Shown here in pieces: positions 1,261 to 56,452 of a stretch of DNA of 64,000 bases (position 1 is its first letter; each line of letters begins with the position of its first letter). The notes below the pieces were generated by a model that saw only the letters and a list, made by a program, of their open reading frames with translations, made no database searches and was not told where the DNA came from. The stretch comes from Terriglobia bacterium. Its GTDB lineage: Bacteria; Acidobacteriota; Terriglobia; 20CM-2-55-15. The stretch covers positions 194,557 through 258,556 of the forward strand of contig CBDAPB010000032.1 in NCBI GenBank assembly GCA_965198265.1, given 5' to 3'. The position numbers and the translations under genes were made by a program.

Positions 1261-1289
1261 GTAGTCAGTAGTCAGTAATCAGTTGGGCG
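1261..1289. repeat. Heptamer-repeat element, half copy: (GTAGTCA)2 GTAATCA GTTGGG
   Basis: Tandem 7-mers in the fliK-flgD gap. No partner arm. Confidence 0.8.
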
Positions 1290-1448
1290 CCCGGAATTCC
1301 CGAAGATATCAAGAACTTTCGAGAGCGGTGGAGGCGTTCGCTTAGACAAGGAATGCGCCGCGAGGACGACGGAGGCGTATATGAAATACGTTGAGTACGG
1401 CCGAGCAAGCATGACGCAGGATAAGCGGACGGATCCGCCGCTCCTGCA

Positions 1449-3113
1449 CTACGCGTGGACGTTGACTAGCGAACCCTCGGCCGACGATTCGAAGTGGGTC
1501 GTCAAGGAAGCATCCTCGACTTCACTCATCGTGGACGCCTGCTTTTTGGGGGAATGCGGGTTTCCGCTCTGCGAATGATTCGAGTCGGCGCCCGTGTCGA
1601 AGCGACCGGAGAACAGGACGTCCGACACCGAAACCTGTTCGCGGCTCAGCGATTCGACCAGGTGGTGGACGGAGCCCTCCAGGCCGGAACGAAGGACTGC
1701 GGGCGCATCGAATCGGAGCGAGACCTCACCCTGGTGGTCTCGGATCTGGACACGTACCTCAGCGTCGGAGTCTCCGAGCATCATGGTCACGCGTCGAGCG
1801 GGTTCGAGCGAAAACGTGGTGTCAGCCACCGGTCTGACAGGCTGGGGAGGGGCGACCTGCTGTGGGGCGTTCTGACGTTCGAAGCGGTCACTTTGATTCG
1901 GAACGTCCGCCGACATCTGCACGATCGTGCCGGCGTCCTTCGTCTCTGCAGAGGCGACGGATGGTTGCGCGGCAGCGGAGCGGGCCTGATTGAACTGCCT
2001 CGATGCGATGGCGACTTCCTTCCACACTGGATGGGACGTCACGAGTTGATCGACGGCGGTACGGACGAGAGGCAGCTCTTCGACGGGCAATCGGGGCGCG
2101 GCTTCTGTCGGGCGTGGCGCGTTCGTGCGCGCTTCAAGACGGGCCAGCAGATCCGCTGCCTCGGGGGCTGCCTCGAAATTTACTCTGTACGTGCCCTCGA
2201 CGTCGCGGGGCTGGGTCGCTACCACGACCGGCGTTGAAGAGGGCAGTTCCGAGCGAACGGCTCCTGCAGAAGGCCGTGAGGCGTCCGACACGGCCGATCT
2301 GGTGTTTGGACCACTCGAGGTCGGCTCCGGGCCGGCTGTCTTTGAAGCGGTATCTGGATCCAGGTCGATCGCGAGCTTTCGGACACCGTGCCCTTCCAGG
2401 TCGAGTGCTTCGGTCGAAACGCCAGCCGCTCGAGGGCGCGGGCCCGACACGCTGATGTCCCTAGCTGCAGCGCCGAGCGTCTCATCGTCACCCTGGTTCA
2501 CCGGTGTAGCGTCTTGTGGTCGAACCCTGCCTCGCTGCTCGAGGGGAATGTCGACACCCGGTTCAACGTTCTCGGGTGCGCCGGTCCGGGAAAGGGTGGC
2601 CGTCCGCTCCCCGGATACGACATCCGGCACGGGCCGTTCAACCGGGACTGTATCCCCGTGGGAAACCCTAACGGTCGATTCGACTGGGGCTTTCCCCGTC
2701 GATTCCATCCGCGGCTCAGACCGAGCGTCGTCGCCAAAGCGTTCCAATACCTCGAGAATCTCGGGCACATCAAGAGTTTCTGAATCCGCCAGCTGCTCGA
2801 CCGGCGGCTCGGCCCCTCGCTCGAGCGATTCGCGAATAAAATTAGAAAGATCTATCTCGGGGGGTATTTCGGCGGCTTCAGCAAGGGATGCAATCTCAGC
2901 GGTTTCGGCAAGGACGCCAGAAAGAACCGTTCCACCTTCCGGAGCACCGGCCTCGCCTTCGCCCTCGAGCCCCGCCTGCGTCAGATACGCTTCGAACAAG
3001 GAAGGATCGGAGGCCGCGTCCCCAATCGGGGCGCCGGCAACGGCGGGGTCCCCCTGTGGGGAGATCGGCCCCTGCGGGGAGATCGGCAGGTTTGACTGTG
3101 TCAGGTCTTCCAT
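1449..3113 (-). CDS. fliK: Flagellar hook-length control protein FliK (Pro/Ala/Ser-rich)
   Basis: 554 aa, low-complexity and proline-rich. Sits between fliJ and flgD, as in fla operons. The C-terminal 100 aa or so are more ordered and FliK-like. Assignment rests on position and composition. Confidence 0.65.
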   Translation of the reverse strand: MEDLTQSNLPISPQGPISPQGDPAVAGAPIGDAASDPSLFEAYLTQAGLEGEGEAGAPEGGTVLSGVLAETAEIASLAEAAEIPPEIDLSNFIRESLERGAEPPVEQLADSETLDVPEILEVLERFGDDARSEPRMESTGKAPVESTVRVSHGDTVPVERPVPDVVSGERTATLSRTGAPENVEPGVDIPLEQRGRVRPQDATPVNQGDDETLGAAARDISVSGPRPRAAGVSTEALDLEGHGVRKLAIDLDPDTASKTAGPEPTSSGPNTRSAVSDASRPSAGAVRSELPSSTPVVVATQPRDVEGTYRVNFEAAPEAADLLARLEARTNAPRPTEAAPRLPVEELPLVRTAVDQLVTSHPVWKEVAIASRQFNQARSAAAQPSVASAETKDAGTIVQMSADVPNQSDRFERQNAPQQVAPPQPVRPVADTTFSLEPARRVTMMLGDSDAEVRVQIRDHQGEVSLRFDAPAVLRSGLEGSVHHLVESLSREQVSVSDVLFSGRFDTGADSNHSQSGNPHSPKKQASTMSEVEDASLTTHFESSAEGSLVNVHA

Positions 3114-3128
3114 CTATTCAGCTAAGAG

Positions 3129-3584
3129 TTACGCCCGGCTCTTGCGTACATACCGGACGAGGGAAGTTTCGTCGATCATTTTCTGCATCATTGCAGATTC
3201 TTCCCGCTCCGCTTGTTGCAATTGGCGTTCCCGCAGCTTTTCGACGGTCTTTTTCTCCTTGAGGGCTTCCCTCAGGACTGCCTTGCGTTCTTCAAGCTTA
3301 GTAGTTGCTTTTTCAATATCTTGGCGGATTCGGCAAGAGCGACTTTCGGCCGCTCCGACAAACTTTTCGGTACACTGCAGACCCTCGGCGCTGAGCCCTC
3401 CAGGCTGGGAAAATTCTTCCATCGCCTGGCGGATTTTTCCCGCCTCCTCCGCCAGCCGCCCCTCGAGTCGCCGGATATCCCGCTCGCTCTCCCGGACGCG
3501 GGCTTCGGCCGCATCGACGGCGATCTGCCGCACGGACATGAGGCGGTCAAGGCGATTGAGGCTTTGTTTAGTTTCGGTCTTCAT
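3129..3584 (-). CDS. fliJ: Flagellar export chaperone FliJ (coiled coil)
   Basis: 151 aa, charged coiled coil, between fliI and fliK. Confidence 0.7.
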   Translation of the reverse strand: MKTETKQSLNRLDRLMSVRQIAVDAAEARVRESERDIRRLEGRLAEEAGKIRQAMEEFSQPGGLSAEGLQCTEKFVGAAESRSCRIRQDIEKATTKLEERKAVLREALKEKKTVEKLRERQLQQAEREESAMMQKMIDETSLVRYVRKSRA

Positions 3585-3593
3585 GGCGCAAAA

Positions 3594-3676
3594 GTGGTCA
3601 GTGGTCAGTGGTCAGTGGCCAGCAAATCGCCGCATCAACTTCCGATTCTGACCACTGGCCACTGGTCACTGGCCAC
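3594..3676. repeat. Heptamer-repeat palindromic element: (GTGGTCA)3-GTGGCCAG / 25-nt spacer / (CTGACCA, CTGGCCA) arm
   Basis: Inverted arms of tandem 7-mers that exactly fill the fliJ-fliI junction. The right arm encodes the last 3 codons and stop of fliI. Confidence 0.85.
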
Positions 3677-5003
3677 TATCCAGCGCTGCCAGTTCGACGA
3701 GACTCGAGCGCGTGCCGTCCATGTCGGCTCGCTCCTCGGCTGGCTGCTTCAGAAAACTGTTGATGGAATCGAGGCGGTCGATCGCCGTGTCGACACGCGG
3801 GTTCGAACCCTTCTTGTAGGCGCCGATCTGGATCAGGTCCTCGGCCTTCTTGTGCGTGCCGAGCAGGTCACGGATCTCGGTCGCCGATTTCTGGTGTTGG
3901 GCGTCCACCATCTGCATCATGAGCCGGCTGTTACTGGCGAGAAGGTCAATGCAGGGGTAATGACCTCTCGAAGCCAGTTCGCGGTCCAGCACGATGTGGC
4001 CGTCCAGGATCGCGCGGACCGAATCGGCGATCGGGTCGTTCATGTCGTCGCCTTCGACCAGGATCGTGTAGAAAGCCGTGATGCTACCCTCGTCGAACTT
4101 GCCTGCCCGCTCCAGAAGCCTGGGAAGCAGCGAAAAGACCGACGGCGTGTACCCTTTGGTCGACGGTGGTTCTCCCGCTGCCAATCCCACCTCTCGCTGC
4201 GCCATCGCGAACCGGGTCACCGAATCCATCATCAGCAGCACGTTGTGTCCCCGCCTCTGGAAGTACTCGGCCGCAGCGGTCGCCGCGAACGCGGCGCGTA
4301 TGCGCACCAGCGCCGGCTGGTCCGAGGTCGAGACAAATACGACGGAGCGCTTCAGACCTTCTTCACCGAGGTCGTTCTCGATAAACTCGCGCACCTCCCG
4401 GCCTCGCTCGCCGATCATGGCAATCACGTTCAGGTCGGCGCTAGTGTAACGGGCGATCATGCCCAGCAGCGTACTCTTGCCCACGCCGCTTCCTCCGAAG
4501 ATTCCGACTCTCTGGCCCATGCCACAGGTAAGCAATCCGTCTATGGATCGAATACCGGTCTGAATGGGATCTCGGATGGGGTCTCGAGACAGCGGATTCG
4601 ACGGCTCCGCATACAAAGCCTGCTGGCCCAGACCGGTGGGCAGTGGCCGCTCATCGATTGGACGACCGAGGCCGTCCAAAACCCGGCCCAGTAGCTCGTC
4701 TCCCACACCGATGGTGGCGACGCGGCCTGAAGCGTACACACGGTCACCCTGCTTGACGTTTTCGAGCTTGCCGAGCGGCATCGTGATCACCTTGCCTTCG
4801 TTGAAACCCACGACTTCCAGCGGGACCTTTGTCCCGGCGCTCTCGGCCCAGCAAATGGAGCCCGTCGTCACGTTCGGACCATGGGATTCGATGGAGTTGC
4901 CGACGACCTTATCGATAAGTCCGAATTCGATCAGAGAGTTCAGTTCGGCGAGGCGGGAGTAGCGCTCGGCAAGGTTCAAATCTTTGGCAAACTGGTTCGG
5001 CAT
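3666..5003 (-). CDS. fliI: Flagellum-specific ATP synthase FliI
   Basis: Walker A motif GGSGVGKST. Shares the F1/T3SS ATPase family. Confidence 0.95.
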   Translation of the reverse strand: MPNQFAKDLNLAERYSRLAELNSLIEFGLIDKVVGNSIESHGPNVTTGSICWAESAGTKVPLEVVGFNEGKVITMPLGKLENVKQGDRVYASGRVATIGVGDELLGRVLDGLGRPIDERPLPTGLGQQALYAEPSNPLSRDPIRDPIQTGIRSIDGLLTCGMGQRVGIFGGSGVGKSTLLGMIARYTSADLNVIAMIGERGREVREFIENDLGEEGLKRSVVFVSTSDQPALVRIRAAFAATAAAEYFQRRGHNVLLMMDSVTRFAMAQREVGLAAGEPPSTKGYTPSVFSLLPRLLERAGKFDEGSITAFYTILVEGDDMNDPIADSVRAILDGHIVLDRELASRGHYPCIDLLASNSRLMMQMVDAQHQKSATEIRDLLGTHKKAEDLIQIGAYKKGSNPRVDTAIDRLDSINSFLKQPAEERADMDGTRSSLVELAALDSGQ

Positions 5004-9377: not shown

Positions 9378-9751
9378 CAGGCACCTCCATCGGTGATGCT
9401 GGACCGAAGAGTCCGCATCTTGTTCTGCAGGAACTGCATCAACGTGACGAACTGCAACCCGTTCTTGGTGACCTCGGTCAGTTCCCGGTCCAAGTCGACG
9501 GTGTTCCCGTTCGGCTTGGTCTTCGTGTCGACGTCGAACATCCGAAAGCCGGAGCTCGTTGCAGCATTAGTCATGTGGCGGCCAGCGGTGCCAACCAGGT
9601 TGAGCAACTCCAGCCGTTCTTCGAACGTCACGTCTTGGGCCCTGTACCCGGGCGTGTCGACGTTTGCGATGTTTGCAGACAGCACCTGCTGTCGCTTGGA
9701 AGCGACGGAGAGCTGGCTCTCGATGAAGTTCATGAAGCTACTTTCGATCAT
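9377..9751 (-). CDS. flgB: Flagellar basal-body rod protein FlgB
   Basis: Carries the SANIANVDTPGYRAQDVTFE motif. Confidence 0.9.
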   Translation of the reverse strand: MIESSFMNFIESQLSVASKRQQVLSANIANVDTPGYRAQDVTFEERLELLNLVGTAGRHMTNAATSSGFRMFDVDTKTKPNGNTVDLDRELTEVTKNGLQFVTLMQFLQNKMRTLRSSITDGGA

Positions 9752-11055
9752 GCTGTTGCTTCCTCGAGTCGATATTCTTTCAACTTGTTGCGTAGGGTCC
9801 GTAGCGATATGCCGAGCAGCTTTGCGGCGTGGGTGCGGTTACCGTCGGTCTGGTCCAACGTAGCCAGAATCAGCTTTCGTTCCATCTCACTGACCGAGTA
9901 GCCGGCTTGCAGTTGCAGGCCGTCTCCGGTGTCGACCGCCTGGTCGAACAGATCCGCCGGCATGACCTGCAGGCGACCGCGCAGCGCATAGGATCGATGG
10001 ATCACGTTCTCGAGTTCCCGGACGTTGCCCGGCCAACCAAAACTGGTGAGGACCTTCAGCGATTCGTCGTTGACGCTTGGGTCGGTTGCGCCGCCGTACT
10101 TGTTGGCAAAGTGCGCAGTAAGGATGGCGATGTCGTCTCTTCGCTCCCGCAGAGGCGGGATTCGCAGCGGCACGACGTTCAGCCTGAAGAACAGGTCTTC
10201 CCGGAACTGGCCGCGGCTGATCAACTTCTTCAAGTCCTTGTGCGTGGTTGCAATGACTCTGACGCTGATCGGAACCGGTTTCTTGCCACCCACGCGATCG
10301 ACTTCCTGCTCCTGGAGAACCCGCAAAAGCTTCGCCTGGAGCAGGGGCGCCATCTCGCCAATCTCGTCGAGCAGAATCGTACCCTGTTGCGCAAGTTCAA
10401 ATTTCCCTAGTTTCAGAGCGTTGGCGCCCGTAAAAGCACCTTTCTCGTATCCGAACAGTTCCGATTCCAGCAGGTTGTCGGGAAGAGCGGCACAGTTAAC
10501 CGCGACAAACGGCCCCTTGGATCTGTTGCTGCTCTCGTGAATCCAGCGCGCCAGCAGTTCCTTACCAGTTCCGCTCTCGGCCTGAACCAGGACCGTCGCA
10601 TCCGTCCGGGCGGCCTGGGCGGCATCGGCAAGCAGTTTTTTCATCTGGCGGTTCTCGCTGATGATCTCGGTCCTCTTCGTGGGCGCCGGCCGGGAGTCTT
10701 TCTTTGGAAGCCGCGCCAGCACTCGATCGAGCGCCTCCTGTGAGAACGGTTTCACAAGAAAATCCATCGCGCCGTTCCGCATGGCATCCACCGCGGTCGG
10801 GACGCTTCCGTATGCTGAGAGCAGGATTACGGGGAGGTCGGGACTCGTTCGGCGGACGTGGTCGAGCAGCTCCAGGCCGTCCATCGCCGGCATCCGTAGA
10901 TCGGTGATGATAGCCCTGGGTAACCGGACTTTGAGCTTCTGGACAGCATCGATGCCGTTCGAAGCCGTTTCCACCTCGTACCCGCGGCTGAGGAGAGCAG
11001 CTTCCAACGCCGACAGCATTTGAATGTCATCATCGACAACCATCAACCAACTCAC
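9748..11055 (-). CDS. Sigma54-dependent response regulator (REC + AAA+ sigma54 activator + Fis HTH), FlgR/FlrC-like
   Basis: Has a receiver-domain DD...D start, the GAFTGA loop (EKGAFTGA), ESGTGKE Walker A and a C-terminal HTH. Its stop overlaps the flgB start. A GTG start at 11055 is preceded by AGGAGG. Confidence 0.9.
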   Translation of the reverse strand: MSWLMVVDDDIQMLSALEAALLSRGYEVETASNGIDAVQKLKVRLPRAIITDLRMPAMDGLELLDHVRRTSPDLPVILLSAYGSVPTAVDAMRNGAMDFLVKPFSQEALDRVLARLPKKDSRPAPTKRTEIISENRQMKKLLADAAQAARTDATVLVQAESGTGKELLARWIHESSNRSKGPFVAVNCAALPDNLLESELFGYEKGAFTGANALKLGKFELAQQGTILLDEIGEMAPLLQAKLLRVLQEQEVDRVGGKKPVPISVRVIATTHKDLKKLISRGQFREDLFFRLNVVPLRIPPLRERRDDIAILTAHFANKYGGATDPSVNDESLKVLTSFGWPGNVRELENVIHRSYALRGRLQVMPADLFDQAVDTGDGLQLQAGYSVSEMERKLILATLDQTDGNRTHAAKLLGISLRTLRNKLKEYRLEEATA

Positions 11056-14262: not shown

Positions 14263-14400
14263 TCCGCGTAAGAAAGCCACGGATTACACAGGTTACACGG
14301 ATAGGACAGAATTAACTGGTCATGCTGTCCGAAAGACCTCTCCTAATCTGCTAAATCCGTGCAATCCGTGGCTGAATTCGTCCGTGCAGTCCGTGACTAA
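14263..14400. repeat. Cluster of short dispersed repeats (CACGGATT / AAATCCGTG / GAATTCGTCCGTGCA units) related to 28690-28750
   Basis: GAATTCGTCCGTGCA and GCTAAATCCGT recur in inverted orientation at 28697-28745. Confidence 0.7.
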
Positions 14401-15638: not shown

Positions 15639-15688
15639 ATGGTTGCCATATTTTTATGCCAGTGCCCGAAAGCGTCAAGGGGAAAATA

Positions 15689-15780
15689 GTAATCAGTCAA
15701 AAGTAGTCAGTGGTCAGTTGAAGAAGGAGCGGAAAGAGGCGGGTCGCGGCTGGCAACTGACTACTGGCTACTGACTATTC
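15689..15780. repeat. Heptamer-repeat palindromic element (GTAATCA/GTAGTCA/GTGGTCA arm; AACTGACTACTGGCTACTGACTA arm)
   Basis: Lies between the VWA gene start and the ferredoxin stop. Confidence 0.85.
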
Positions 15781-15781
15781 T

Positions 15782-16197
15782 TCAGTGACTTTCCCGTGCC
15801 GCGTTACGGTTCCAATCCGGGATGTAAACAACGATATCCACGGACCCGTCGGCGACGGCCTGGCAGCTGAGGCGGCTGTCGGGGGTGAGGCCCGGCGCGT
15901 TGTAGAGCTGGTCTTCTTCGGCGTCGCTCATCTCGGAGAGCGTGTCTCCGCCTTCCTGAACGACGCAATGGCAGGTTGAGCAGGCGCAGACGCCGCCGCA
16001 GGCGTGATCGATCTCGATGCCGTTGGCCAGGGCAACATCCAGGATGCTGCCCGGCAGGCCGGTGTCGCCGAGGGGGAGTTTGTCGGGGTCGACCTCGACC
16101 GTCACGTTCATCGGAAGGAATGTGACGGTGAACTTCTCGGTTGCCAAGTGCACCGAGGCAAGCTCATCAAAGTATGGATTTCGTCCGCCCATTCGAA
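15782..16197 (-). CDS. [2Fe-2S] ferredoxin, adrenodoxin/Fdx type
   Basis: CGGVCACSTCHC...C cysteine pattern with Fdx-like alignment. Start uncertain (16116-16197). Confidence 0.8.
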
Positions 16198-16410: not shown

Positions 16411-16504
16411 AGAGGGTACAACTAAACACGGATGTTTGGACGGGCTCGGATACCCGTGCTCAAGATCAAGGAGGATCAATTTAACTCTTTCAGGGAGGAT
16501 CCTT

Positions 16505-17332: not shown

Positions 17333-17369
17333 TAGACGGATCGCGTCTTTGATGACGCGCAGAAGAATA

Positions 17370-17404
17370 GGCGGTAGGCCTCACGGCTCTACCGCCCTTT
17401 TTTT
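17370..17404 (+). terminator. Rho-independent terminator of fliC
   Basis: GGCGGTAG...CTACCGCC stem followed by CTTTTTTT. Confidence 0.85.
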
Positions 17405-17421
17405 AGCCCCGAAAAACGCGA

Positions 17422-18204: not shown

Positions 18205-18232
18205 GACTATTCGGCGGTCGAACCAACCGTCA

Positions 18233-18919: not shown

Positions 18920-19729
18920 TCAGGGCTCGATCCCGACCAGGGAGATCATCCGGCCCGCCCGGTCTCCATCCCTGCGGTACGAATAGAAGAGGTCAGCCCG
19001 ACACTTCGTGCACAATGAGGAAACGATCACGCGGCTGTGATCAACGCCCGCTGCAATTAACTGAAGCCGGTTGGCTTCGGCCAAGTTCAGGTGGGGCTTC
19101 GTCCACTCCTCACGCCGCTCGAATACGGCCGGGTGGGCAAACCAGTCGTAAACTTCCTCGCCCACTTCCATACAACAGACTCCGATGTGCGGACCCACGA
19201 CGGCCCAGATGTCGCCCGGATCGAGTCCCGATTCTATGACCATACGATCGACGGTGCGACGCGCAACACCCTCGGAGGTGCCACGCCAACCGGCGTGGAC
19301 GGCCGCAACCGCGCGAGAACCCGAATCGGCGATCAGAATCGGCGCGCAGTCGGCTGTTGCGACACCCAGTGCCATTCCCGAAAGCGACGTGAAGGCCGCG
19401 TCTCCCTCGGGCCTCTCGTTCACCGACATGTTGTCATTCACCGCATGAACGATGTTGGAGTGGATTTGCTTCGGCCTGAAAGACGGCCATCCGGGAACTC
19501 CGATCGCGGCCATGAACCGTTCCCGGTTCTCCTCGATATCGGGTCGATCCGGCCCCGTCGCAAAATCGTCGTTCTCCCCCCTGCGCGTCGAGAACGCATG
19601 GACGATCCTGGGAATCCCGGTCAACTGAGGGGCCGTCAGAAAAGTCACCTGCGAGTTACGCTGTACCTGTAACATATTCCGTCCCGCATTAACGAACGGC
19701 CTCCGGCTGTCAGCGATCAGTTTGAGCAC
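18920..19729 (-). CDS. pgeF: Peptidoglycan editing factor PgeF (YfiH/DUF152, laccase-domain purine nucleoside phosphorylase)
   Basis: HAGWRG motif, conserved His and Cys. The true start may be the internal Met at about 19675. Confidence 0.85.
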   Translation of the reverse strand: MLKLIADSRRPFVNAGRNMLQVQRNSQVTFLTAPQLTGIPRIVHAFSTRRGENDDFATGPDRPDIEENRERFMAAIGVPGWPSFRPKQIHSNIVHAVNDNMSVNERPEGDAAFTSLSGMALGVATADCAPILIADSGSRAVAAVHAGWRGTSEGVARRTVDRMVIESGLDPGDIWAVVGPHIGVCCMEVGEEVYDWFAHPAVFERREEWTKPHLNLAEANRLQLIAAGVDHSRVIVSSLCTKCRADLFYSYRRDGDRAGRMISLVGIEP

Positions 19730-19738
19730 GCGTCCCCT

Positions 19739-19774
19739 AACTGACTACTGACTACCGACTACTGACTACTATCC
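19739..19774. repeat. Heptamer-repeat element, half copy: (TGACTAC)5
   Basis: In the divergent pgeF/acpS promoter region, ending 2 nt before the acpS ATG. Confidence 0.8.
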
Positions 19775-19775
19775 T

Positions 19776-26615: not shown

Positions 26616-26784
26616 TTGAGTAGTCAGTAGCCAGTAGTCGGTAGTCAGTTGGCGGACGCTCAGCAGCCATTGTGGCCCGAACCGCCACGACAAGCAAAAC
26701 CGACAGGTGACAAGCCAGTCAGTGAAACGCGGAAACGTAACTGACTACCGACTACTGACTACTGACTACTGACTACTGACTACT
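26613..26784. repeat. Heptamer-repeat palindromic element with an 85-nt core (arms (GTAGTCA)n / (TGACTAC)7)
   Basis: Fills the entire SDR-HDAC-like intergenic space. Its core is related to the 35241-35374 copy. Confidence 0.9.
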
Positions 26785-27722
26785 TGTTCTCCCATGAAAA
26801 TCGTTTACTCCCCGATTACTTCCTCAACTTCGGAGACGCCCATGTCTTTCCGATCGAGAAGTATCGTCTCGTCTACGAGGAGATTCGAGCGTTTGTCGAT
26901 GACGACGACTTTGTAACCCCCAATCCCGCGACCGACGAAGACATCCTCACCGTCCATGACTTCAACTACCTGCAGAAGCTGAAGACGGGCATGATGTCCG
27001 AGGGCGAGCTCAGGGTCGCAGAGGTCCCGTTTTCACCCGCACTCGTGGACGCTTTCTGGCTCGCCACGGGCGGCACGCTTCTCGCTGGAGAGCTTGCTTG
27101 CGAGGAGGGGCGCGCTATGAACCTGACCGGAGGGTTTCACCATGCCTTTCCCGACCACGCGGAAGGATTCTGTCTGGTCAATGACGTTGCCGTTGCCATC
27201 CGGGTGCTCCAAAAGAAGCGGAGCATCGAGACGGCCATGACCATCGATTGCGACGTCCATCACGGCAACGGCACGGCGTTCATATTCGAACAGGACCCCC
27301 GCGTGACGACGATCTCACTGCATCAGGCTGACAACTACCCGGCCGTCAAGCCACCGAGCGACATCGACGTCCCGCTTCGCGATGGCTGCACCGACCAGGA
27401 GTACGCTCGGGAATTGGAGCGTGCGCTCGCAACCGGATTCGACGATGCCTCCCCGGACCTGGTCTTCTACCTGGCCGGCGCCGATCCCTACCGCCAGGAC
27501 ATGCTCGGGGGGCTGGGCCTGACTATCGACGGGCTGGCGAATCGTGATCGCATGGTTCTGGAAGCGTGCGCAGATCAAGGTGTCGCCTGCGCCGTCGTCC
27601 TCGCGGGCGGCTATGCCCAGAATACAAACGACACGGTCACCATCCACGTCAACACTGTCCGCGTCGCCCGGGAGACCGCGTTACCGTCGACAAACCCTAC
27701 CGGAACGGGTTCCTTGAAATGA
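26784..27722 (+). CDS. Histone deacetylase-family (arginase/deacetylase superfamily) protein, AcuC/HDAC-like
   Basis: GGFHHA, DxDxHHGNG and GGY motifs. The N-terminus is ambiguous (TTG start per ORF track; an ATG MKIVYSP lies in the +1 frame). Confidence 0.85.
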   Translation: MFSHENRLLPDYFLNFGDAHVFPIEKYRLVYEEIRAFVDDDDFVTPNPATDEDILTVHDFNYLQKLKTGMMSEGELRVAEVPFSPALVDAFWLATGGTLLAGELACEEGRAMNLTGGFHHAFPDHAEGFCLVNDVAVAIRVLQKKRSIETAMTIDCDVHHGNGTAFIFEQDPRVTTISLHQADNYPAVKPPSDIDVPLRDGCTDQEYARELERALATGFDDASPDLVFYLAGADPYRQDMLGGLGLTIDGLANRDRMVLEACADQGVACAVVLAGGYAQNTNDTVTIHVNTVRVARETALPSTNPTGTGSLK

Positions 27723-29989: not shown

Positions 29990-30030
29990 AGTCTGATGTG
30001 TCGAATCCCCAATTCACCAGAAATGCTCTA

Positions 30031-30390: not shown

Positions 30391-30391
30391 C

Positions 30392-35240: not shown

Positions 35241-35374
35241 GAAGTAGTCAGTAGTCAGTAGTCAGTAGTCAGTTGCCGGAACGCTCAGCGGCAACTGTGG
35301 CCCGAACGAGTGACGAGTCAACCAATGACAAGCTGAACCCCAACTGACTACTGATTACTGACTACTGACTACTG
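35241..35374. repeat. Heptamer-repeat palindromic element with a 63-nt core (arms (GTAGTCA)4 / (TGACTAC)4)
   Basis: Lies between the mfd start and the hldE-like stop. Its core shares ACGCTCAGC.GC.A.TGTGGCCCGAAC with the 26613 copy. Confidence 0.9.
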
Positions 35375-41181: not shown

Positions 41182-41367
41182 CCTGGGAGGCTGGCCTCCC
41201 AGGGTCAATCTTCAATCTCGAATCTCGAATCGCCAACTGTCCAATGCGGAATCTCAGATAGAAAAATCTGCAATGCAATTCGCTCAAGCCGCGGCCGCGT
41301 CATCGCAGATTGACTATCGGAAGTTCCGCAATGGAAATTTGAGATTGTAGACTTCAGATTTTTTCGA

Positions 41368-41910
41368 TTGCCCATCCCGAGCCTTAATAGAATAAAGCTA
41401 CTAACGAGGAAAGACATGGAAGAGGGAACCAGGATAGAGGACATCGACAACTGGATTGCGAAGCTCGGAAACCGTGATTTCGACTGGGACGCCCTGGGGT
41501 TTCAAGCCGAAGTGCATCCCAAGTACCGGAGGGCCCAGATCCGGTACCTCGGAGGAGGAGGTACCGGGAAACACGACGACCCCAACGTCGTCAAGGCCCA
41601 GCATTTCACGCTGAGCACGATGCTGTTGCCACCCGGGAGCGAAGGGCCGCTCCACCTGCACAGCGATGTCGAGGAGGTCTTCTTCGTCCTGGAGGGGAAG
41701 GTCACGTGCACATGGGCGGAGGACGGCAGAGAAGTCGAGCGCACCCTGGGACCGCGCGACATGATCTGCACGCCAGCGGGCGTCTATCGCGGTATCCGTA
41801 ACGACGGGGACACCGATGTCTTGATGCTCGTGATGCTGGGCACCGGGCGGCCACAGCTGCCGACCTACCCCGAAGGCAGCCCGCTGATCGAGGCCCGGAA
41901 GAATAAATAG
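41368..41910 (+). CDS. Cupin domain protein
   Basis: GPLHLHSDVEEVFFVLEG cupin motif. The start may be the internal Met at 41416. Confidence 0.6.
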   Translation: MPIPSLNRIKLLTRKDMEEGTRIEDIDNWIAKLGNRDFDWDALGFQAEVHPKYRRAQIRYLGGGGTGKHDDPNVVKAQHFTLSTMLLPPGSEGPLHLHSDVEEVFFVLEGKVTCTWAEDGREVERTLGPRDMICTPAGVYRGIRNDGDTDVLMLVMLGTGRPQLPTYPEGSPLIEARKNK

Positions 41911-46243: not shown

Positions 46244-46248
46244 ATACG

Positions 46249-47682
46249 ATGACACCGACATCCGGCAAGGTACTGATCGACGGTGACTGGATCGACGTCG
46301 CCCAGACGAGGCCGGTCATCAACCCCGCGCGGAATACCGAGACCGTCGGAGAGGTCGGGCTCTGCGGAAACGACGAGGTGGATCGTGCCCTGGAAGCCGC
46401 GGCCTCCGCCTTCGACAAGTGGTCGCGATTCAGTCCCGCCGATCGAGCGGAAAGGCTGACGTCTGCCGCCGCGGCCCTTGATGAGTCGCTGCCCGATCTC
46501 ACCCCTCTGTTCGCCCGAGAGAACGGGAAGCCGCTCGCCGAAGCCGAGCGGGATATCCGGCGATCGATCGAGATGATGGAAATTGTCGCTCGGGACCTTC
46601 CGGTCTGGAGCGCGCCAGCGTTGATCGATTCCGGGCAGCCGGTTTGGATGCGGAAGCGGCCGCGCGGCGTGACGGCGGTCATCTCGCCATGGAACTCGCC
46701 GGTCCTGCTCAGCTTTCGGCGCTTCGTGCCTGCGGTGGGCGGTGGAAACACTGTTGTCGTCAAACCGGCCAGCTATTGCCCGCTGACGGTCATGGAATGT
46801 TTCCGGATCATCCAAGCGCAGTTTCCGGCAGGCGTCCTGAACCTGGTCACCGGAGCGGGCGGCATGGTTGGAGAAGGCCTCGTCCGGGACGCTCGCGTTG
46901 CGACCGTCGCATTCACCGGTGGCACGGAAACCGGCCGGCGGATCATCGAAGCCACCGCACCAACGGTCAAGAAACTGTTCCTGGAACTCGGCGGGAACGA
47001 TCCGGCGGTCGTTCTCGAAGATGCCGTCTTGGATGAATCCGCCATCGAACGGATGACGCGTGCGATCCTGCGGGCCACCGGCCAGGTCTGCGTGGCCATC
47101 AAACGAATCTACGTTCAAGAGTCGCGTGAAGAGGAACTGCTCGAAAAGCTCATGGCGTCGTTCGAGCGGACCGTCGTCGGCGATCCACTTCAGAGTGAAA
47201 CGACGATGGGACCGCTCAACAACAAACCCCAGTTCGATTTCGTCAGCGGCCTGATCGAAGAAGCGCGCGCAACCGGGAGCGATGTCCGCAGTCTCGGAAG
47301 GAAACTCGACCCCAATTCCTGGAGGGATGGCTACTTCATGTTGCCGGCCATCGTCGCCGACGCCGGCCACGCTGACACCCTGGTCGGTTGTGAACAGTTC
47401 GGACCGGTGATCCCCCTCGTCTCATTCAATGACGAGGACCAGGCGGTGGAGTGGTCGAACGACACACCGTACGGCCTACGGGCTTCGGTGTGGACCTCGG
47501 ACCGGACCCGCGCGGAAAACCTCGCCGACCGAATCCGCGCCGGGGCTGTCTTTCACAACAACCACGGCATTTTCCAGGATCTTCACGTGGAGTTTCCCGG
47601 CCTCAAGCAGAGCGGGCTCAGCCGGGAGTCGCGCTCGATGGGATTGGATCACTATACGGATTCGTATGGGTTCGCGGATTGA
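46249..47682 (+). CDS. Aldehyde dehydrogenase family protein
   Basis: Catalytic Cys and Glu context, FTGGTETG motif. Start taken at MTPTSGK. Confidence 0.9.
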   Translation: MTPTSGKVLIDGDWIDVAQTRPVINPARNTETVGEVGLCGNDEVDRALEAAASAFDKWSRFSPADRAERLTSAAAALDESLPDLTPLFARENGKPLAEAERDIRRSIEMMEIVARDLPVWSAPALIDSGQPVWMRKRPRGVTAVISPWNSPVLLSFRRFVPAVGGGNTVVVKPASYCPLTVMECFRIIQAQFPAGVLNLVTGAGGMVGEGLVRDARVATVAFTGGTETGRRIIEATAPTVKKLFLELGGNDPAVVLEDAVLDESAIERMTRAILRATGQVCVAIKRIYVQESREEELLEKLMASFERTVVGDPLQSETTMGPLNNKPQFDFVSGLIEEARATGSDVRSLGRKLDPNSWRDGYFMLPAIVADAGHADTLVGCEQFGPVIPLVSFNDEDQAVEWSNDTPYGLRASVWTSDRTRAENLADRIRAGAVFHNNHGIFQDLHVEFPGLKQSGLSRESRSMGLDHYTDSYGFAD

Positions 47683-47710
47683 TGGGGGAGTCGTCAGTTC
47701 GGGAAAAGAG

Positions 47711-47783
47711 ACGAGTAACAAGTGACGGGTGACGAGCAAGAGCGGGGTTTCGACTTGTCACTTGTCACTCTTCACTCGTCACC
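47711..47783. repeat. Heptamer-repeat palindromic element, GTGAC-type 7-mers
   Basis: GTAACAA GTGACGG GTGACGA ... CTTGTCA CTTGTCA CTCTTCA CTCGTCA, between the ALDH and MFS genes. Confidence 0.75.
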
Positions 47784-52906: not shown

Positions 52907-53464
52907 ATGAAGACAACCCTGACAACGACTCCCCTGAAGGATCTGGTTGTTATCGATATCGACTACTTCGAAGACGAACGGGGCTTTTTCATCGAGTCGT
53001 GGCATCAGCGAGATTTCGCCGCCGCCGGTCTGGATCTGACGTTCGTCCAGGAGGGCCATTCCCGCTCCGGGAAGGGCGTGCTGCGAGGCCTGCACTACCA
53101 GGACACGACCGCACCCATGGCCAAGCTTCTCCGCTGCACTGTCGGCCGGATATTCGACGTTGCCGTGGATCTTCGGATGAGCTCGCCCACTTTCGGAAAA
53201 TGGCTCGGCGTCGAGCTGAGTGCGGAAAACAAGCGGCAGATCTACGTCCCCGTCGGGTTCGCGCACGGCTTCGCGACCCTGTCCGACGTGGCCGAGGTTC
53301 AGTACAAGCAGACCGGGTTCTACACTCCTCCGTCGGAGGGAGGGATCCGATGGAACGACCCCGATGTCGGGGTGGACTGGCCGATCAAGGACCCGACCCT
53401 CTCCGAACGCGACCGGACCAGCCAGAGCCTGGCCGAATACCGGACGAGCCCCGCGTTTCCCTGA
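52907..53464 (+). CDS. rfbC: dTDP-4-dehydrorhamnose 3,5-epimerase
   Basis: RmlC cupin motifs (RGLHYQ, catalytic His and Tyr context). Confidence 0.9.
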   Translation: MKTTLTTTPLKDLVVIDIDYFEDERGFFIESWHQRDFAAAGLDLTFVQEGHSRSGKGVLRGLHYQDTTAPMAKLLRCTVGRIFDVAVDLRMSSPTFGKWLGVELSAENKRQIYVPVGFAHGFATLSDVAEVQYKQTGFYTPPSEGGIRWNDPDVGVDWPIKDPTLSERDRTSQSLAEYRTSPAFP

Positions 53465-53465
53465 G

Positions 53466-53575
53466 CTGCTGACGATTGGCTGTTAGCGATTGGCTAACTG
53501 CGTTAAGCCCTCAGTGTTCAGCTATCAGCTCCGATAGCCAAGAGCTAAAAGCCGAAAGCCAACAGCTGAACCCTT
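53466..53575. repeat. Heptamer-repeat element, TCAGCT/AGCTGA-type 7-mers, plus GATTGGCT direct repeats
   Basis: AGCCAAG AGCTAAA AGCCGAA AGCCAAC AGCTGAA array, opposed by TTCAGCT ATCAGCT and GATTGGCT x2. After the rmlC stop. Confidence 0.7.
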
Positions 53576-53624
53576 CGGGTGATATAGTGCCGAAACCCAA
53601 CCCACAGCCTGGAGGTTCGCTTCC

Positions 53625-55343
53625 ATGACCGACCGCGCATTTTTGCCGCTGGTTCTGTGTGTCGCAGCGCTGGGGCTGTCGTTCGCCTGCACCCCGACAC
53701 CCAATGGCCCACCGCCGGATCTCATCGCCTACAACGGACACATCGTGACTCTCGACCCCCAGGCCACCGAGGCCGAAGCCGTCGCTGTGGCAGACGGACG
53801 CGTGGTCGCCGTCGGGCCCGACGCCCGAATTCGCGCCCTTGCCGGTCCGGGGACCGAAGAGATCGATCTGGCCGGGCGCACAATGGTACCCGGCCTGGCG
53901 GATAATCATTTCCACGGGTTGGGCGGTGGAAGCGGGGTCGACCTGTCTCGCGCCCGGAACCTTCAGGATGTCCATGACGCGATCGCGGCGCGGGCCGCCC
54001 AGACCCCGGCCGGAGGGATCATCCGCACGAACAGCGACTGGCACGAGGGGCAGCTCGTCGAACAGCGACTCCCCTACCGGGACGACCTGGATCGGGCCGC
54101 GCCCGACCATGCGGTCGTCGTCGTCCGTGGCGGACACGAATACGTCCTGAACACCGCTGCGCTGGCACGCTGGGACATCACCGCGGCGACCCCCGAGCCC
54201 GAAGGCGGGGTGATCGGGCGGTATGACGACGGCAGACTGAATGGCGAGCTCGTCGACCGCGCAAAAAGCTTGGCGCGGCTGCCCCGCGGCAGCGAGGAAC
54301 GGCCGGACTACGAAGAGCGACTCATGGCGCTCGCCGCGGGGCTTCGAACTCTGAATGAAGCGGGTCTGACCAGCGTACGGTACGGGAGTGGTTCCCCCGA
54401 CAGGTACCGAATGCTCGTGGACCTGAAGGAGCGCGGGCTTTTGACCATCCGCGCCAGCGTCCTTTTCCGACTGGGCGGATCAACCGACCCCGCCACGCTC
54501 GGCGAGACCTTTTCGGAGTGGGGAATCGGACCGGACGACGGCGACGAATGGGTGCGCGTCGCCGGCATTAAACTGGGCGTCGACGGTGGCTTCGAGGGCG
54601 GCTGGATGCGAGAGCCGTACGAAGAACCCTGGGGAAAAGACGGGACGTTCACTGGCCTGCAGATTTTCCCGACGGAGCCCTACATCGCACTCGTTCGGGC
54701 ATTGAACACCAAGGGCTGGCGCGTCGCGACCCACGCCGTAGGCGATGCCGCGATGGATCTCGTCCTGGACGCATACGAAGCGGCTCATGCGGACTCCCCA
54801 ATCACGGGCAAGCGATGGGCTATCGAACACGCGTTCGTTGCCGGAGAGGACCAGTTTCCCCGGATGAGGGCGCTCGGGCTGCACGTTTCCGCACAAAACC
54901 ACCTCTACGTCGCCGCTCCGAGCCTCCGCAAGTATTGGGGCCGGGACCGGGCCGACCGCGTCACGCCAGTCCGGGCCTATGTGGACGCCGGCCTGGACGT
55001 CTCGCTGGGCACCGATTCGCCCGTTATTCCATACCAGCCGATGTGGGTCCTGTATCACTTCATCACGCGGGACACGATCAGCGCCGGAGTCGCCGGTCCC
55101 GAGCAGAAGGTCGGACGCGAAGAAGCCCTGCGCCTGATGTCGCTCGGCAACGCGCGTTTGACTTTCCAGGAAGACATCAAGGGATCGATCGAAGAGGGGA
55201 AGCTCGCCGACATGATCGTGCTTTCGGACGACATTCTCACCTGTGCCGAGGAGCAAATCGAAGACATTCGAGTCCTGATGACGATCGTCGGAGGGGAGGT
55301 GGTTTACCGGGACGCCGACCTTACCACTCAAGCTGCAAACTAG
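53625..55343 (+). CDS. Amidohydrolase family (amidohydrolase 3) lipoprotein
   Basis: Lipobox, HFHGLGG metal-binding motif and TIM-barrel amidohydrolase pattern. Confidence 0.85.
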   Translation: MTDRAFLPLVLCVAALGLSFACTPTPNGPPPDLIAYNGHIVTLDPQATEAEAVAVADGRVVAVGPDARIRALAGPGTEEIDLAGRTMVPGLADNHFHGLGGGSGVDLSRARNLQDVHDAIAARAAQTPAGGIIRTNSDWHEGQLVEQRLPYRDDLDRAAPDHAVVVVRGGHEYVLNTAALARWDITAATPEPEGGVIGRYDDGRLNGELVDRAKSLARLPRGSEERPDYEERLMALAAGLRTLNEAGLTSVRYGSGSPDRYRMLVDLKERGLLTIRASVLFRLGGSTDPATLGETFSEWGIGPDDGDEWVRVAGIKLGVDGGFEGGWMREPYEEPWGKDGTFTGLQIFPTEPYIALVRALNTKGWRVATHAVGDAAMDLVLDAYEAAHADSPITGKRWAIEHAFVAGEDQFPRMRALGLHVSAQNHLYVAAPSLRKYWGRDRADRVTPVRAYVDAGLDVSLGTDSPVIPYQPMWVLYHFITRDTISAGVAGPEQKVGREEALRLMSLGNARLTFQEDIKGSIEEGKLADMIVLSDDILTCAEEQIEDIRVLMTIVGGEVVYRDADLTTQAAN

Positions 55344-55445
55344 TCGCTACTCGCGACGGAAAAACCGGGCTTCTCCCGAACCGCCAACATGGTATTCTTC
55401 GGCGCGCCCGTCGGCGCTGATGCTACAAACCAAGGAGTCCAAGAT

Positions 55446-56333
55446 ATGGAACGAAAAAAAGCCAGCGACTTCGACCAGGAACTTCTTAACCTTTTCGACC
55501 GCTATATCCATGGTGGGATCACCCGGCGCCAGTTCTTCGACGGCGCGGCGAAGTTCGCCGTGGGCGGTGTGACCGCTGCAGCCCTCGTGGAGAGCCTCCT
55601 CCCCCGCTACGCCGAAGCCCAGCAGGTCGCGCCGGACGACTCGCGGCTGAATGCAGAGTACGTCGAGTACGAATCCCCGCAGGGCGGCGGGACCATCAAG
55701 GGCCTCCTGGCACGTCCGGCCAGCGCCAGCGGCAGGCTGCCGGGAATCGTCGTCATCCACGAGAACCGGGGCCTCAACCCCCACATCGAAGACGTGACGA
55801 GGCGCGCTGCGCTTGCCGGGTTCATCGCGTTCGGACCGGATGCACTGACCCCGCTGGGCGGTTATCCGGGTAACGACGACGACGGAAGGACGATGCAGCG
55901 GCAGCGTGACGGCGCCGAGATGCTCGAGGATTTTGTCGCTGCCGCCGCCTTCCTGAAATCACATCCCGAATGCACGGGTACGATCGGCGCCGTTGGTTTC
56001 TGCTTCGGCGGCAGCATGACCAACAGGCTCGCCGTACGAATCCCGGACCTGGCGGCCGCGGTGCCATTCTACGGGGGACAGCCATCGGCCGAAGACGTGC
56101 GGAAGATCAACGCGCCACTCCTGCTCCACTACGCGGAGATGGATCAGCGGATCAACGCGGGCTGGCCGGCGTATGAGGAAGCCCTGAAGGCCAACCACAA
56201 GACGTACACCGCACACATGTACCCGGCGACGAATCACGGCTTCCACAACGACACGACACCCCGGTTCGACGAAGAGGCGGCCAAGCTGGCCTGGGAGCGG
56301 ACAATCGCCTTCTTCAACGAGCACCTGCGGTAG
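55446..56333 (+). CDS. Dienelactone hydrolase family protein with Tat signal
   Basis: RRQFFDG twin-arginine motif, DLH fold (GFCFGG nucleophile). AAGGAG ribosome-binding site. Confidence 0.85.
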
Positions 56334-56360
56334 GCGCGTGATCCTCCGGATCAAGCGAGC

Positions 56361-56452
56361 GATCAGCGGTCAGCCTTCAGCTACTTCCGAAACGGGACGA
56401 TAGTCCCATCCGATTGAGCTGACAGCTGATAGCTTACGGCTGATAGCTGATC
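56361..56452. repeat. Heptamer-repeat palindromic element, (NNTCAGC)3 arm / (GCTGANN)5 arm
   Basis: GATCAGC GGTCAGC CTTCAGC ... GCTGACA GCTGATA GCTTACG GCTGATA GCTGATC. Ends at the mltG stop codon. Confidence 0.8.

Follow-up and report, generated by a model that had tools for sequence, protein, structure and literature searches.

Intergenic palindromic elements with tandem heptanucleotide arms in a Terriglobia genome and their possible nature

What kind of repeat fills the gene junctions of an acidobacterial genome with long hairpins whose arms are tandem heptanucleotides, and what could it do there? The question is raised by a stretch of 64,000 nucleotides from a Terriglobia bacterium (GenBank assembly GCA_965198265.1, contig CBDAPB010000032.1, positions 194,557 to 258,556 of the forward strand; G+C ~60%), called the window in the following, in which ten loci share the same layout of an arm of tandem 7-mers, a spacer and an arm of the complementary 7-mers. 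Nine of them had been named in an original prediction made from the letters alone. It is confirmed here that the observation is real and that the loci carry palindromic elements with tandem 7-mer arms. As to their nature, we give an even chance to the following reading: the elements would be palindromic repeats akin to repetitive extragenic palindromic (REP) sequences, REPINs and MITEs (miniature inverted-repeat transposable elements), with heptanucleotide microsatellites as stems, and we infer that, when transcribed, they act as REP-like punctuation of mRNA.

Tandem Repeats Finder reported period-7 arrays at 1261, 3593/3648, 15756, 19740, 26619/26740, 35243/35343, 47753 and 56417 and thereby detected eight of the nine loci named before, while the one at 53466 was missed because its unit (NNTTRGC / GCYAANN) is too degenerate. 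In a strict lag scan over periods 4-12, which demanded 13 of 14 matches at the lag, the window showed seven runs at period 7, one at period 9 and none at periods 4-6, 8 and 10-12. In 200 first-order Markov simulations of the window, strict period-7 runs had a mean of 0.015 and a maximum of 1. A looser lag-7 scan added 47707, 53531 and 56416 as well as 41199-41243, part of a tenth element (41205-41370) missing from the earlier list, which had counted at least nine copies. An inverted-repeat finder joined the arms at 3593-3682, 15685-15788, 26619-26785 and 35243-35374. Long hairpins were predicted in RNA folds for all eight elements submitted, with z between -2.5 and -10.4 compared to dinucleotide shuffles, and the arms of elements 1 and 7 likewise pair in predicted folds. 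All nine named loci hold up in these analyses, those at 1261 and 19739 being less clean: eight of the ten elements comprise two clear arms, while the right arm of element 1 and the left arm of element 4 are degenerate. The predicted stems measure 20-45 bp, the loops 13-130 nt (~160 nt in the degenerate element 1) and the inserted length ~70-230 nt per element.

At least six unrelated unit types occur within the 64 kb, namely GTAGTCA, GTGGTCA, GTGACRR, NNTCAGC, NNTTRGC and GAATCTC. That the unit varies while the 7-nt period is kept had been claimed for these loci, and it is also seen at a single orthologous junction, which carries GTAGTCA in the window and GTAGGCC/GTTGCCC in two relatives. No single sequence motif covering all unit types was found. 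The pattern G-Y-N-N-T-C-A fits GTAGTCA, GTGGTCA, GCGATCA and GCGGTCA and fails for GTGACRR, GAATCTC and many units in other genomes. The sole rule that generalises across unit types is that the 5' arm is G-rich and C-poor.

The same polarity was found in other genomes. A scan for (GTAGTCA)3 in one genome per species gave at least 117 loci, among the matches listed in cyanobacteria (frequently in Microcoleus and Tychonema), Acidobacteriota, Chloroflexota, Planctomycetota, Bacteroidota, Firmicutes, Latescibacterota and others. A pair was counted when (GTAGTCA)n was followed by (TGACTAC)n within 250 nt, as against the opposite order. The listed loci together with the window comprise at least 29 pairs with GTAGTCA first and none in the opposite order, and 41 viral contigs comprise nine and none. 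Metagenomic loci add eight GTAGTCA-first pairs, for which the opposite order is not applicable since they were fetched by the arm-loop-arm pattern; the total thus amounts to at least 46 pairs (29+9+8) against zero, the eight metagenomic ones being preselected by pattern. The G+C content of these metagenomic loci ranges from 44% to 68%, and their arrays mix CTACTGA with CAACTGA (L165-L172) and, in L168, also with TAACTGA. In a unit-agnostic survey of all fetched DNA, whose loci had been chosen for period-7 arrays, 58 inverted array pairs were observed at period 7 compared to 1, 1 and 0 at periods 6, 8 and 9. Of 60 period-7 inverted pairs, 55 had a 5' arm in which G outnumbered C; where the units bear no relation to GTAGTCA, the G-rich array came first in nine pairs and second in one (p = 0.02).

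The arrays were also placed relative to genes. On reading into GTAGTCA arrays, a long open reading frame (ORF) was found to end where the array begins in 64 of 171 cases, compared to 28 of 171 for the complement. Behind TGACTAC arrays, an ORF start lay at a distance of up to 25 nt in 33 of 171 cases, compared to 16 of 171 in the other direction. Altogether, the strand polarity is fixed: on either strand, the G-rich, C-poor array leads and adjoins the stop codon of the upstream gene, and the G-poor array follows, often 5-11 nt before the next start codon, in the place of a Shine-Dalgarno (SD) sequence.

Several of the IMG/VR viral contigs (L125, L159/L162) carry two to three heptamer-armed hairpins each, with loops of 10-67 nt, and a normal SD sequence and start codon follow the hairpin in L125 and at one element of L159. 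Such copies in phages may reflect repeats that the host genomes carry. In a Tepidisphaeraceae contig (L056, 291-727), a 129-aa ORF on the minus strand lies exactly between (GTAGTCA)3 and (TGACTAC)2 arrays ~400 nt apart; judged by eye, we take it to be a four-helix-bundle protein of the 23S rRNA intervening-sequence type. The genes enclosed by distant arms in L088, L056 and L047 were considered as transposases and rejected as ordinary genes, presumably a HIT-family protein (HxHxHxx motif in the translation) and a small four-helix-bundle ORF.

The history of individual elements was followed at syntenic loci of relatives, fetched via Mfd homologues. The DNA identity to the window is 92.5% for L120/L121, ~87% for L178 and ~70% for L122 and L123, and the amino-acid identity of Mfd is 83% for L173 and 79% for L174-L177. 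The identity levels give the tree ((window, L120), L178). At the SDR/deacetylase junction, element 5 begins 4 nt past the SDR stop codon with the 5' arm GTAGTCA GTAGCCA GTAGTCG GTAGTCA GTT (26619..26650), followed by a loop termed the A-core (26651..26738; GGCGGACGCTCAGCAGCCATTGTGGCCCGAAC...GTGACAAGC) and the 3' arm (TGACTAC)x6.4 (26739..26785), 8 nt before the deacetylase ATG at 26794; the fold has z = -8.8. While this junction measures 178 nt in the window, it comprises a gap of 14 nt in the outgroup L174. Elements of ~150-170 nt with homologous loops are found in the window, L120 and L178, with arms of GTAGGCC/GTTGCCC and their complement in L178 and L120 compared to GTAGTCA in the window. 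The loop of L120 is inverted relative to both the window and L178, and blastn independently gave a reverse-strand hit between flanks that are collinear. Given the tree ((window, L120), L178), this pattern amounts to a single loop flip in the L120 lineage and a concerted replacement of all units in both arms in the window lineage.

Element 6, at the CTP_transf/mfd junction, comprises the arm (GTAGTCA)x4.4 (35243..35275), at a distance of 11 nt from the start codon of mfd (35231, minus strand), an A-core loop (35276..35340), which is inverted relative to the orthologous L120/L121 element, and the complementary arm (TGACTAC)x4.6 (35341..35374), which holds the CTP_transf_like stop codon (35369-35371, minus strand), with z ~ -10. 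In the outgroups L174-L177 the stop and start codons overlap (TAATG) compared to a gap of 137 nt in the window; L173 has 54 nt with an apparent short GTGAC-type remnant. A different element of four GTGACRA units, a 26-nt loop and four TYGTCAC units occupies the site in L178, its unit type being that of window element 8. The window and L120 share GTAGTCA arms and the loop family at this site, with loops in opposite orientation (flipped score 41 compared to 15 for the same orientation), and in L122 and L123 unrelated palindromes stand in place of the heptamer element. At the glyoxalase/cupin junction, element 7 consists of the arm CAATCTT CAATCTC GAATCTC GAATCGC (41205..41233, from the lag scan and fold) and the complementary arm GAGATTG TAGACTT CAGATTT..CGATTG (41335..41370, from the fold and the comparison with relatives). 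The gap measures 8 nt in L122, 27 nt in L178, 91 nt in L120, where only the complementary arm is kept, and 234 nt in the window with the full element. Since relatives have gaps of 0-14 nt at the same junctions, the elements are insertions into formerly tight junctions, with a much faster turnover than that of the flanking genes. The comparison of orthologous intergenic regions, which had been proposed as a check, thus revealed a clear presence/absence polymorphism at the SDR, mfd and glyoxalase/cupin junctions.

Beside element 6, at 35374-35408, lies a perfect 16-bp hairpin, GCGGGTTGTCTCCCGC-AAG-GCGGGAGACAACCCGC on the plus strand. One of its arms encodes the conserved C-terminal ERVVSR of CTP_transf_like; the other is an inverted duplication, which lengthens the ORF by AGDNPQ up to a new end at a TAG within the first heptamer. 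The hairpin is common to the window and L120 and absent in L173 and L174. It looks like the result of a fold-back (template-switch) event and, since it is an inverted copy of the last conserved codons of the neighbouring gene, it suggests that fold-back copying happens at this site.

The inverted loops could also be explained if the elements were invertible switches, with the arms as recombination sites and a loop flip that toggles a loop-borne promoter or RNA (phase variation). Such switches would account for the opposite loops of the window and L120 at both orthologous sites compared, with the flip at the SDR site placed in the L120 lineage by L178. However, loops of 13-130 nt (~160 nt in element 1) are short for recombinase-mediated inversion, no sigma-70-like promoter was called in the loops of elements 4-6, which are the ones in the scanned stretch, and no invertase gene was found nearby. 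Furthermore, both loop orientations relative to the downstream gene occur within each genome, while near-identical strains agree in loop orientation (the window with L001, L120 with L121). Phase-variable switches are therefore considered very improbable.

Besides the A-core loops of elements 5 and 6, which are homologous to each other and to their L120/L178 counterparts, a second loop was found to recur. Element 10 lies between convergent genes (DLH stop codon at 56333) and comprises the arm GATCAGC GGTCAGC CTTCAGC (56361..56381), the loop core TACTTCCGAAACGGGACGATAGTCCCATCCGATT (56382..56415) and the complementary arm GCTGACA GCTGATA GCTTACG GCTGATA GCTGATC (56416..56452), at a distance of 2 nt from the stop codon of YceG (56454, minus strand). 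Over 39 nt, its loop shares 95% identity with an element of L123 that lies at the non-orthologous mfd/surA junction, although the genes of L123 are only ~70% identical to those of the window. A near-identical loop in such a distant genome indicates that some loops are dispersed or constrained sequences. No matches to this loop core were found in the metagenome scan.

On the shortest time scale, the window was compared with a sister contig (ENA ERZ25072076 ctg245375), which is 99.8-99.9% identical to it and is a distinct sequence with two extra insertion sequences (ISs). Over ~20 kb compared, 11 differences were observed, three of them in heptamer arrays, which account for under 2% of the sequence. 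Compared to the window, the sister strain carries three additional units (+21 nt) in the right arm of element 4 and lacks two units (-14 nt) in that of element 5; a single-nucleotide difference lies in element 6. The strain-level indels in the arrays are exact multiples of 7 nt. In three G/C homopolymers (29229, 30339 and 34673), the window and the ENA contig differ by single-base indels, of which the one at 34673 splits mfd into genes of 963 aa and 200 aa in the ENA contig. They probably stem from errors in the long-read assembly of the '6x' contig and call for caution over small differences between these assemblies.

Taken by themselves, these changes would fit a mutational by-product without function or mobility, in which polymerase slippage lengthens intergenic palindromes or short repeats by 7 nt at a time and quasi-palindrome correction brings the arms into agreement, leaving neutral junk of fast turnover. 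The indels in exact multiples of 7, the very fast turnover at orthologous sites, the lack of a strand-specific RNA signal and the fold-back copying suggested by the 16-bp hairpin beside element 6 all agree with it, and heptamers are the commonest long simple sequence repeat (SSR) class in many prokaryotes (Mrazek 2007, as reported in the papers that cite it). However, a neutral process should yield both polarities, whereas at least 46 pairs against zero were observed in addition to the general G-rich-first rule. Slippage cannot turn a 14-nt gap into a 170-nt element whose loop is homologous to another one in the genome, nor would it place a near-identical loop at a non-orthologous site of a distant genome, and the inverted pairs are nearly confined to period 7 (58 compared to 1, 1 and 0, in the sample chosen for period-7 arrays). 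For these reasons, a mere by-product seems rather unlikely to us.

The gene context of the elements had been described as convergent, divergent and co-directional, including the flagellar operon, and this agrees with the gene calls of the ENA for a near-identical contig and with Pfam matches, which support the flanking genes. Eight of the ten elements lie between co-directional genes (fliI-fliJ among them), one between the divergent Cu-oxidase_4 and acpS (19739) and one between the convergent DLH and YceG (56361). The further claim that the elements reach exactly from stop to start codon is true for three to four of the ten, namely at 3594, 26613 and 35241 and, on the side of the start codon, at 19739. 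The remaining elements have one side 25-50 nt from a gene (~220 nt at 1261), so the claim does not extend to them. A stop codon lies 0-5 nt from an arm in at least six elements.

Element 1 starts with the 5' arm GTAGTCA GTAGTCA GTAATCA GT (1261..1283, no strand assigned; from Tandem Repeats Finder and the sequence). Its degenerate 3' arm, CTGCACTAC...GTTGACTAGC (1445..1470), pairs with 1263-1275 in the fold and, after a spacer of ~160 nt, overlaps the stop codon (1449) of a 554-aa flagellar-cluster gene. In element 2, 8 nt separate the arm (GTGGTCA)x4 (3593..3622) from the start codon of fliJ (3584, minus strand), and the complementary arm TGACCAC/TGGCCAC (3648..3682) holds the fliI stop codon (3666-3668, minus strand), with a fold z of -8.8. 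Element 3, between the Fer2 and VWA genes (both minus strand), comprises the arm GTAATCA..GTAGTCA GTGGTCA GTTG (15685..15720) and the complementary arm CAAC TGACTAC TGGCTAC TGACTAT (15750..15788), which adjoins the Fer2 stop codon at 15782. The degenerate 5' arm of element 4, GGCTGTCA GCGATCA GTTTG (19705..19724), was delimited from sequence and fold, and its 3' arm (TGACTAC)x4 (19739..19770) ends 5 nt before the acpS ATG (19776). Element 8 consists of the GTGACRR-type arm GACGAGT AACAAGT GACGGGT GACGAGC (47710..47737) and the complementary arm CTTGTCA CTTGTCA CTCTTCA CTCGTCA (47752..47783). In element 9, an arm with the 7-nt period NNTTRGC (53465..53508) directly follows the stop codon of a dTDP-sugar epimerase (53462-53464), and the complementary GCYAANN arm (GCCAAGA GCTAAAA GCCGAAA GCCAACA GCTGAA) covers 53533..53570.

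Where a gene is called directly after an arm, the arm stands in for the SD region. An SD-like motif is present in none of five such genes (acpS, fliJ, mfd in two lineages and the L120 deacetylase) compared to 39 of all 71 called genes, and the window deacetylase, whose ATG at 26794 was chosen in this analysis, is also without one. Several of the SD-less genes have a pyrimidine tail before the ATG in common (ACTTCTTCACCCCC, ACTTGTTCTCCC), and a similar tail precedes a non-orthologous gene in L122 (ACTTCTTCTGCCC). Gene callers mishandle the elements, with ORFs running into the arms and the repeat supplying stop codons, and masking by annotation pipelines is advisable.

These features could also mean that a putative RNA or DNA binder recognises the arrays in a register of 7 nt. 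On RNA, a single-strand binder with a footprint of ~7 nt, such as a cold-shock domain or an S1-type OB fold, would open or close the hairpin and thereby control termination and the translation of the next gene. The footprint of a cold-shock domain is 7 nt, and the omega protein of pSM19035 binds 7-bp heptads. On DNA, the binder would be a 'global regulator' of the IHF/HU type or a ribbon-helix-helix protein like omega, as proposed for Geobacter (PMC2700814), where the authors annotated paired MTYCTGA arrays as regulator sites. A binder would explain why the 7-nt period is kept while the unit drifts, the fixed orientation relative to stop and start codons and the position of the arm in place of the SD region; in addition, MacGregor proposed S1/Csp/CsrA for TAACTGA arrays (PMC4679880), and CTACTGA, CAACTGA and TAACTGA co-occur in the metagenomic arrays. 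However, one specific binder cannot account for the six or more unrelated units of the window. Orthologous junctions do not behave like conserved regulatory sites, since among relatives at 87-92% DNA identity the element is lost or exchanged for one of another unit type. The neighbouring genes (flagella, mfd, acpS, metabolism) have no common function, and no candidate protein is encoded next to any element. We therefore regard binding sites as a doubtful explanation.

A more speculative thought is that the hairpins are the product or the substrate of a dedicated machine with a 7-nt register that is common to phyla and phages, which we consider improbable. In one version, an OB-fold RNA chaperone (of the cold-shock or S1 type, ~7 nt per domain) may bind the arms register by register, its level setting hairpin closure and the coupling of stop and start codons, with the unit number as heritable tuning. 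In the other version, an iterative templated polymerase may add the same repeat to both 3' ends of a chromosomal break; this alone would give G-rich-first inverted arms with independent copy numbers around a filler. Explanations beyond those discussed here are left with a very small share.

On the reading as REP/REPIN/MITE-like repeats with microsatellite stems, the observations could be connected as follows. The arrays would grow and shrink by replication slippage with 7 nt as the favoured step, a proposal of Mrazek as cited in two later papers (PMC4679880, PMC4692102). Template switching within the element or recombination between the arms would keep the arms complementary and would flip the loop. 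The polarity would be a survival filter, in which the only insertions to persist inside operons are those that leave structured, C-poor RNA behind a stop codon and a G-poor leader ahead of the next start codon; they would, for example, offer Rho no landing site. When transcribed, the stems of 20-45 bp would act like REP hairpins by protecting 3' ends or by partial termination within polycistronic mRNA, the foot of the stem would bring the upstream stop codon and the downstream start codon together, and the unit number would become a heritable tuning knob of expression.

Several observations weigh against this explanation. A consensus terminator scan of 19-38 kb, which includes elements 4-6, called none of these elements. 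Neither folding energy nor G-U pairs indicated selection for the RNA of the sense strand, the antisense fold being equal or stabler in six of nine elements. No target-site duplication was found flanking elements 2, 5 and 6 or the copies in relatives, and a mobilising enzyme was not identified, the only nearby Y1 transposase being that of the sister strain. Elements 1, 3 and 4 share GTAGTCA arms but have unrelated spacers, unlike a classical MITE family, and element 7 violates the G-rich-first rule. Finally, some of the copy-number differences between the strains could be assembly errors, since the window and the sister contig are both low-coverage long-read assemblies ('6x') with homopolymer indels.

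Assignment to established classes was also tried. Rfam gave no match at the gathering score, and at E<=1 only a chance match to a miRNA precursor at element 8; no tRNA or tmRNA genes were found in a search of the window. Intrinsic (Rho-independent) terminators, which have a short G+C-rich stem, a loop of 3-8 nt and a U-tract, were rejected: the consensus is unmatched in the 19-38 kb scanned, loops of 13-130 nt are too long, and the tails after the GTAGTCA-type arms are only partly T-rich (TTCTTCAC, TTGTTCTC, TTTTGCGC). A REP arm is a conserved imperfect palindrome of 20-40 nt with a GTAG or CGTC tag, whereas the arms here are tandem 7-mers with no internal palindrome, and GTAG is present only in the GTAGTCA/GTAGGCC unit types. 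MITEs have terminal inverted repeats that match those of an IS, along with target-site duplications; no direct duplication was seen around elements 2, 5 and 6 or their relatives, and no heptamer array at the examined ends of the two ISs of the sister strain. Internal homology of the MITE type is partial: the loops are homologous for elements 5/6 with their relatives and for element 10 with L123, and are unrelated for elements 1, 3 and 4. The properties of paired heptameric SSR arrays are all present, namely dispersed tandem 7-mers in convergent opposite-strand pairs, which are intergenic, mostly between co-directional genes and variable in length.

Two IS copies distinguish the sister strain from the window, and no heptamer arrays were found at their examined ends. 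At window position 10494, the sister contig (L119 7481-8107) carries an IS200/IS605-type insertion of 627 nt with a 144-aa Y1_Tnp gene and its own terminal hairpins. It disrupts a sigma-54-dependent response-regulator gene of the flagellar regulatory cluster, which is intact in the window (9748-11055, minus strand), and represents a strain-level presence/absence polymorphism. As a mobiliser of the heptamer elements, this Y1_Tnp was rejected on the present data, since the IS200-like insertion has its own hairpin ends and no heptamers; in the window, no Y1 gene was found. The second copy, an IS4-like insertion of 1323 nt (L119 229-1551; DDE_Tnp_1, 389 aa), lies beside the flagellin gene at window position 16412-16422 and is missing in the window. 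The 11 bases 16412-16422 align on either side of it, which is consistent with a target duplication. The TP_methylase and NTP_transferase genes of L121 are separated by an insertion of 4.4 kb (16431-20836), on which a serine recombinase (Resolvase/Recombinase/Zn_ribbon_recom) is encoded together with a weak RVT_1 fragment and small ORFs. L120, near-identical in other respects, lacks this insertion, which resembles a mobile element that has integrated.

Elements 9 and 10 flank a 2.9-kb block (53465-56452) on both sides. L123 lacks both genes between them, an amidohydrolase (53625-55343) and a dienelactone hydrolase (55389-56333); its YceG and dTDP-sugar epimerase genes adjoin each other convergently, and the ~220 nt that separate them contain no heptamer element. 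Because of this gap without an element, it was ruled out that elements 9 and 10 are halves of a split ancestral one. A second palindromic repeat family, which is not heptameric (AGCCACGGATT...AATCCGTGCAATCCGTGGCT), was observed at several intergenic sites of the window (14275-14398) and the relatives (L120 15236-15282 and 16434-16493; L178 16540-16645). Long intergenic palindromes without a 7-nt period lie at 29830-29995, 59310-59416, 61991-62062 and 17448-17662 of the window, the one at ~29.9 kb reading CCCCTCCTTGGATATAAGGAGGGG ... CCCCTCCTCATCTGAGGAGGGG, and gene callers put small ORFs on some of them.

The original prediction had implied a family without a known counterpart, which is not borne out by the literature. 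Paired opposite arrays of tandem heptamers are published for Xanthomonas (PMC4692102) and Geobacter metallireducens (PMC2700814) and, because this layout has already been described there, the window elements add one more case to a repeat type that is known yet still unexplained, and do not form a class of their own. The GGGAATC repeats of Xanthomonas are tandem 7-mers of 2-26 units, most often four, and ~90% intergenic (Rehm et al. 2015, PMC4692102). They form 70-75 convergent inverted pairs per genome with one array per strand and the G-rich one first, lie near the upstream ORF, mostly between co-directional and rarely between divergent genes, and differ in length among related species; no function was found (PMC4692102). 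The elements of the window agree with them in the paired convergent arrays, the G-rich array first, the intergenic position beside the upstream ORF and the variable length. In contrast, the Xanthomonas unit is G-rich and forms G-quadruplexes, which the window units (GTAGTCA etc.) cannot, and one unit dominates each Xanthomonas genome compared to at least six units in the window. Homologous loops, loop flipping and insertion into coupled junctions are not reported for Xanthomonas (PMC4692102).

For Geobacter metallireducens, Aklujkar et al. 2009 (PMC2700814) list eight opposite-strand pairs at variable distance as 'class 3 global regulator binding sites', each site with five tandem heptanucleotides of the consensus MTYCTGA. 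One example lies between proB and proA, which are co-directional, and the authors interpreted the sites, without a test, as those of an unknown global regulator of the IHF/HU type. Their paired opposite-strand layout agrees with the window, and MTYCTGA is close to the unit CTACTGA found here, but the copies are few. Direct repeats of TAACTGA occur in Beggiatoaceae, cyanobacteria and Bacteroidetes (MacGregor 2015, PMC4679880) as arrays of two to six copies a few nt upstream of SD-less start codons, with indels in 7-nt steps between strains and a scattered phylogeny. They share ACTGA with CTACTGA, the SD-less starts and the 7-nt-step indels, but they are direct arrays (one of 169 sets is inverted, PMC4679880), whereas an inverted partner arm and a hairpin are the rule in the window. 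Heptamer repeats near start codons in Nostoc represent the unpaired form (bioRxiv 10.1101/2022.06.06.494920).

The likeness to heptamer repeats of the short tandemly repeated repetitive (STRR) type, which had been noted from the letters, is supported: both are dispersed tandem heptanucleotides, while the host here is acidobacterial with 60% G+C. Mazel et al. are said to have described the cyanobacterial STRR sequences in 1990 as dispersed intergenic tandem heptanucleotides. STRRs are defined in heterocystous cyanobacteria as direct arrays, and a palindrome of arm, loop and arm lies outside this definition. STRR2, presumably TTGGTCA, would be one base from the GTGGTCA unit of element 2. Strictly defined, by a cyanobacterial host and three canonical units, STRRs were rejected as the class of the elements, since the host belongs to the Acidobacteriota and the units differ. 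The Mfd homologues with a name, at ~65-67% identity, carry the labels Terriglobia or Acidobacteria, and the host is taken to be an uncultured acidobacterium with flagella; look-ups of three window proteins (those encoded at 46033-47682 and 59425-61437, and Mfd) gave no record.

Among well-studied repeats, the closest analogue of the window elements is the REPIN, which consists of two inverted REPs around a spacer (PMC3337134). REPs, REPINs and bacterial interspersed mosaic elements (BIMEs) share with them the inverted arms and spacer, the hairpin and the many intergenic copies after stop codons and inside operons (PMC3337134, PMC3116915, PMC3733652), as well as arms with GTAG at their outer 5' ends, a lower conservation of the spacer than of the arms, and presumed effects on mRNA stability. 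In contrast to the tandem 7-mers found here, REP arms are single imperfect palindromes of 20-40 nt, and GTAG is absent from most window unit types. REPINs are tied to a single-copy gene for a REP-associated tyrosine transposase (RAYT) flanked by REPs, whereas none was seen in the window. The comparative behaviour described here, with a polarity kept across phyla, concerted arm replacement, loop flips and insertion into coupled junctions, exceeds the published descriptions consulted.

Heptanucleotide arrays are the commonest long SSRs in many bacteria and their cause is a puzzle, for which the present set of loci provides unusually clean comparative evidence. If either version of a dedicated 7-nt machine were true, the bacterial excess of heptamer SSRs would become mechanistically explicable. 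If the hairpins set the relative expression of the adjoining cistrons, they would represent a mutable expression dial on hundreds of housekeeping genes per genome, and if not, they would be a widespread selfish or mutational structure. The acidobacterial lineage of the window is rich in such elements, and the comparative data make the question of their nature testable.

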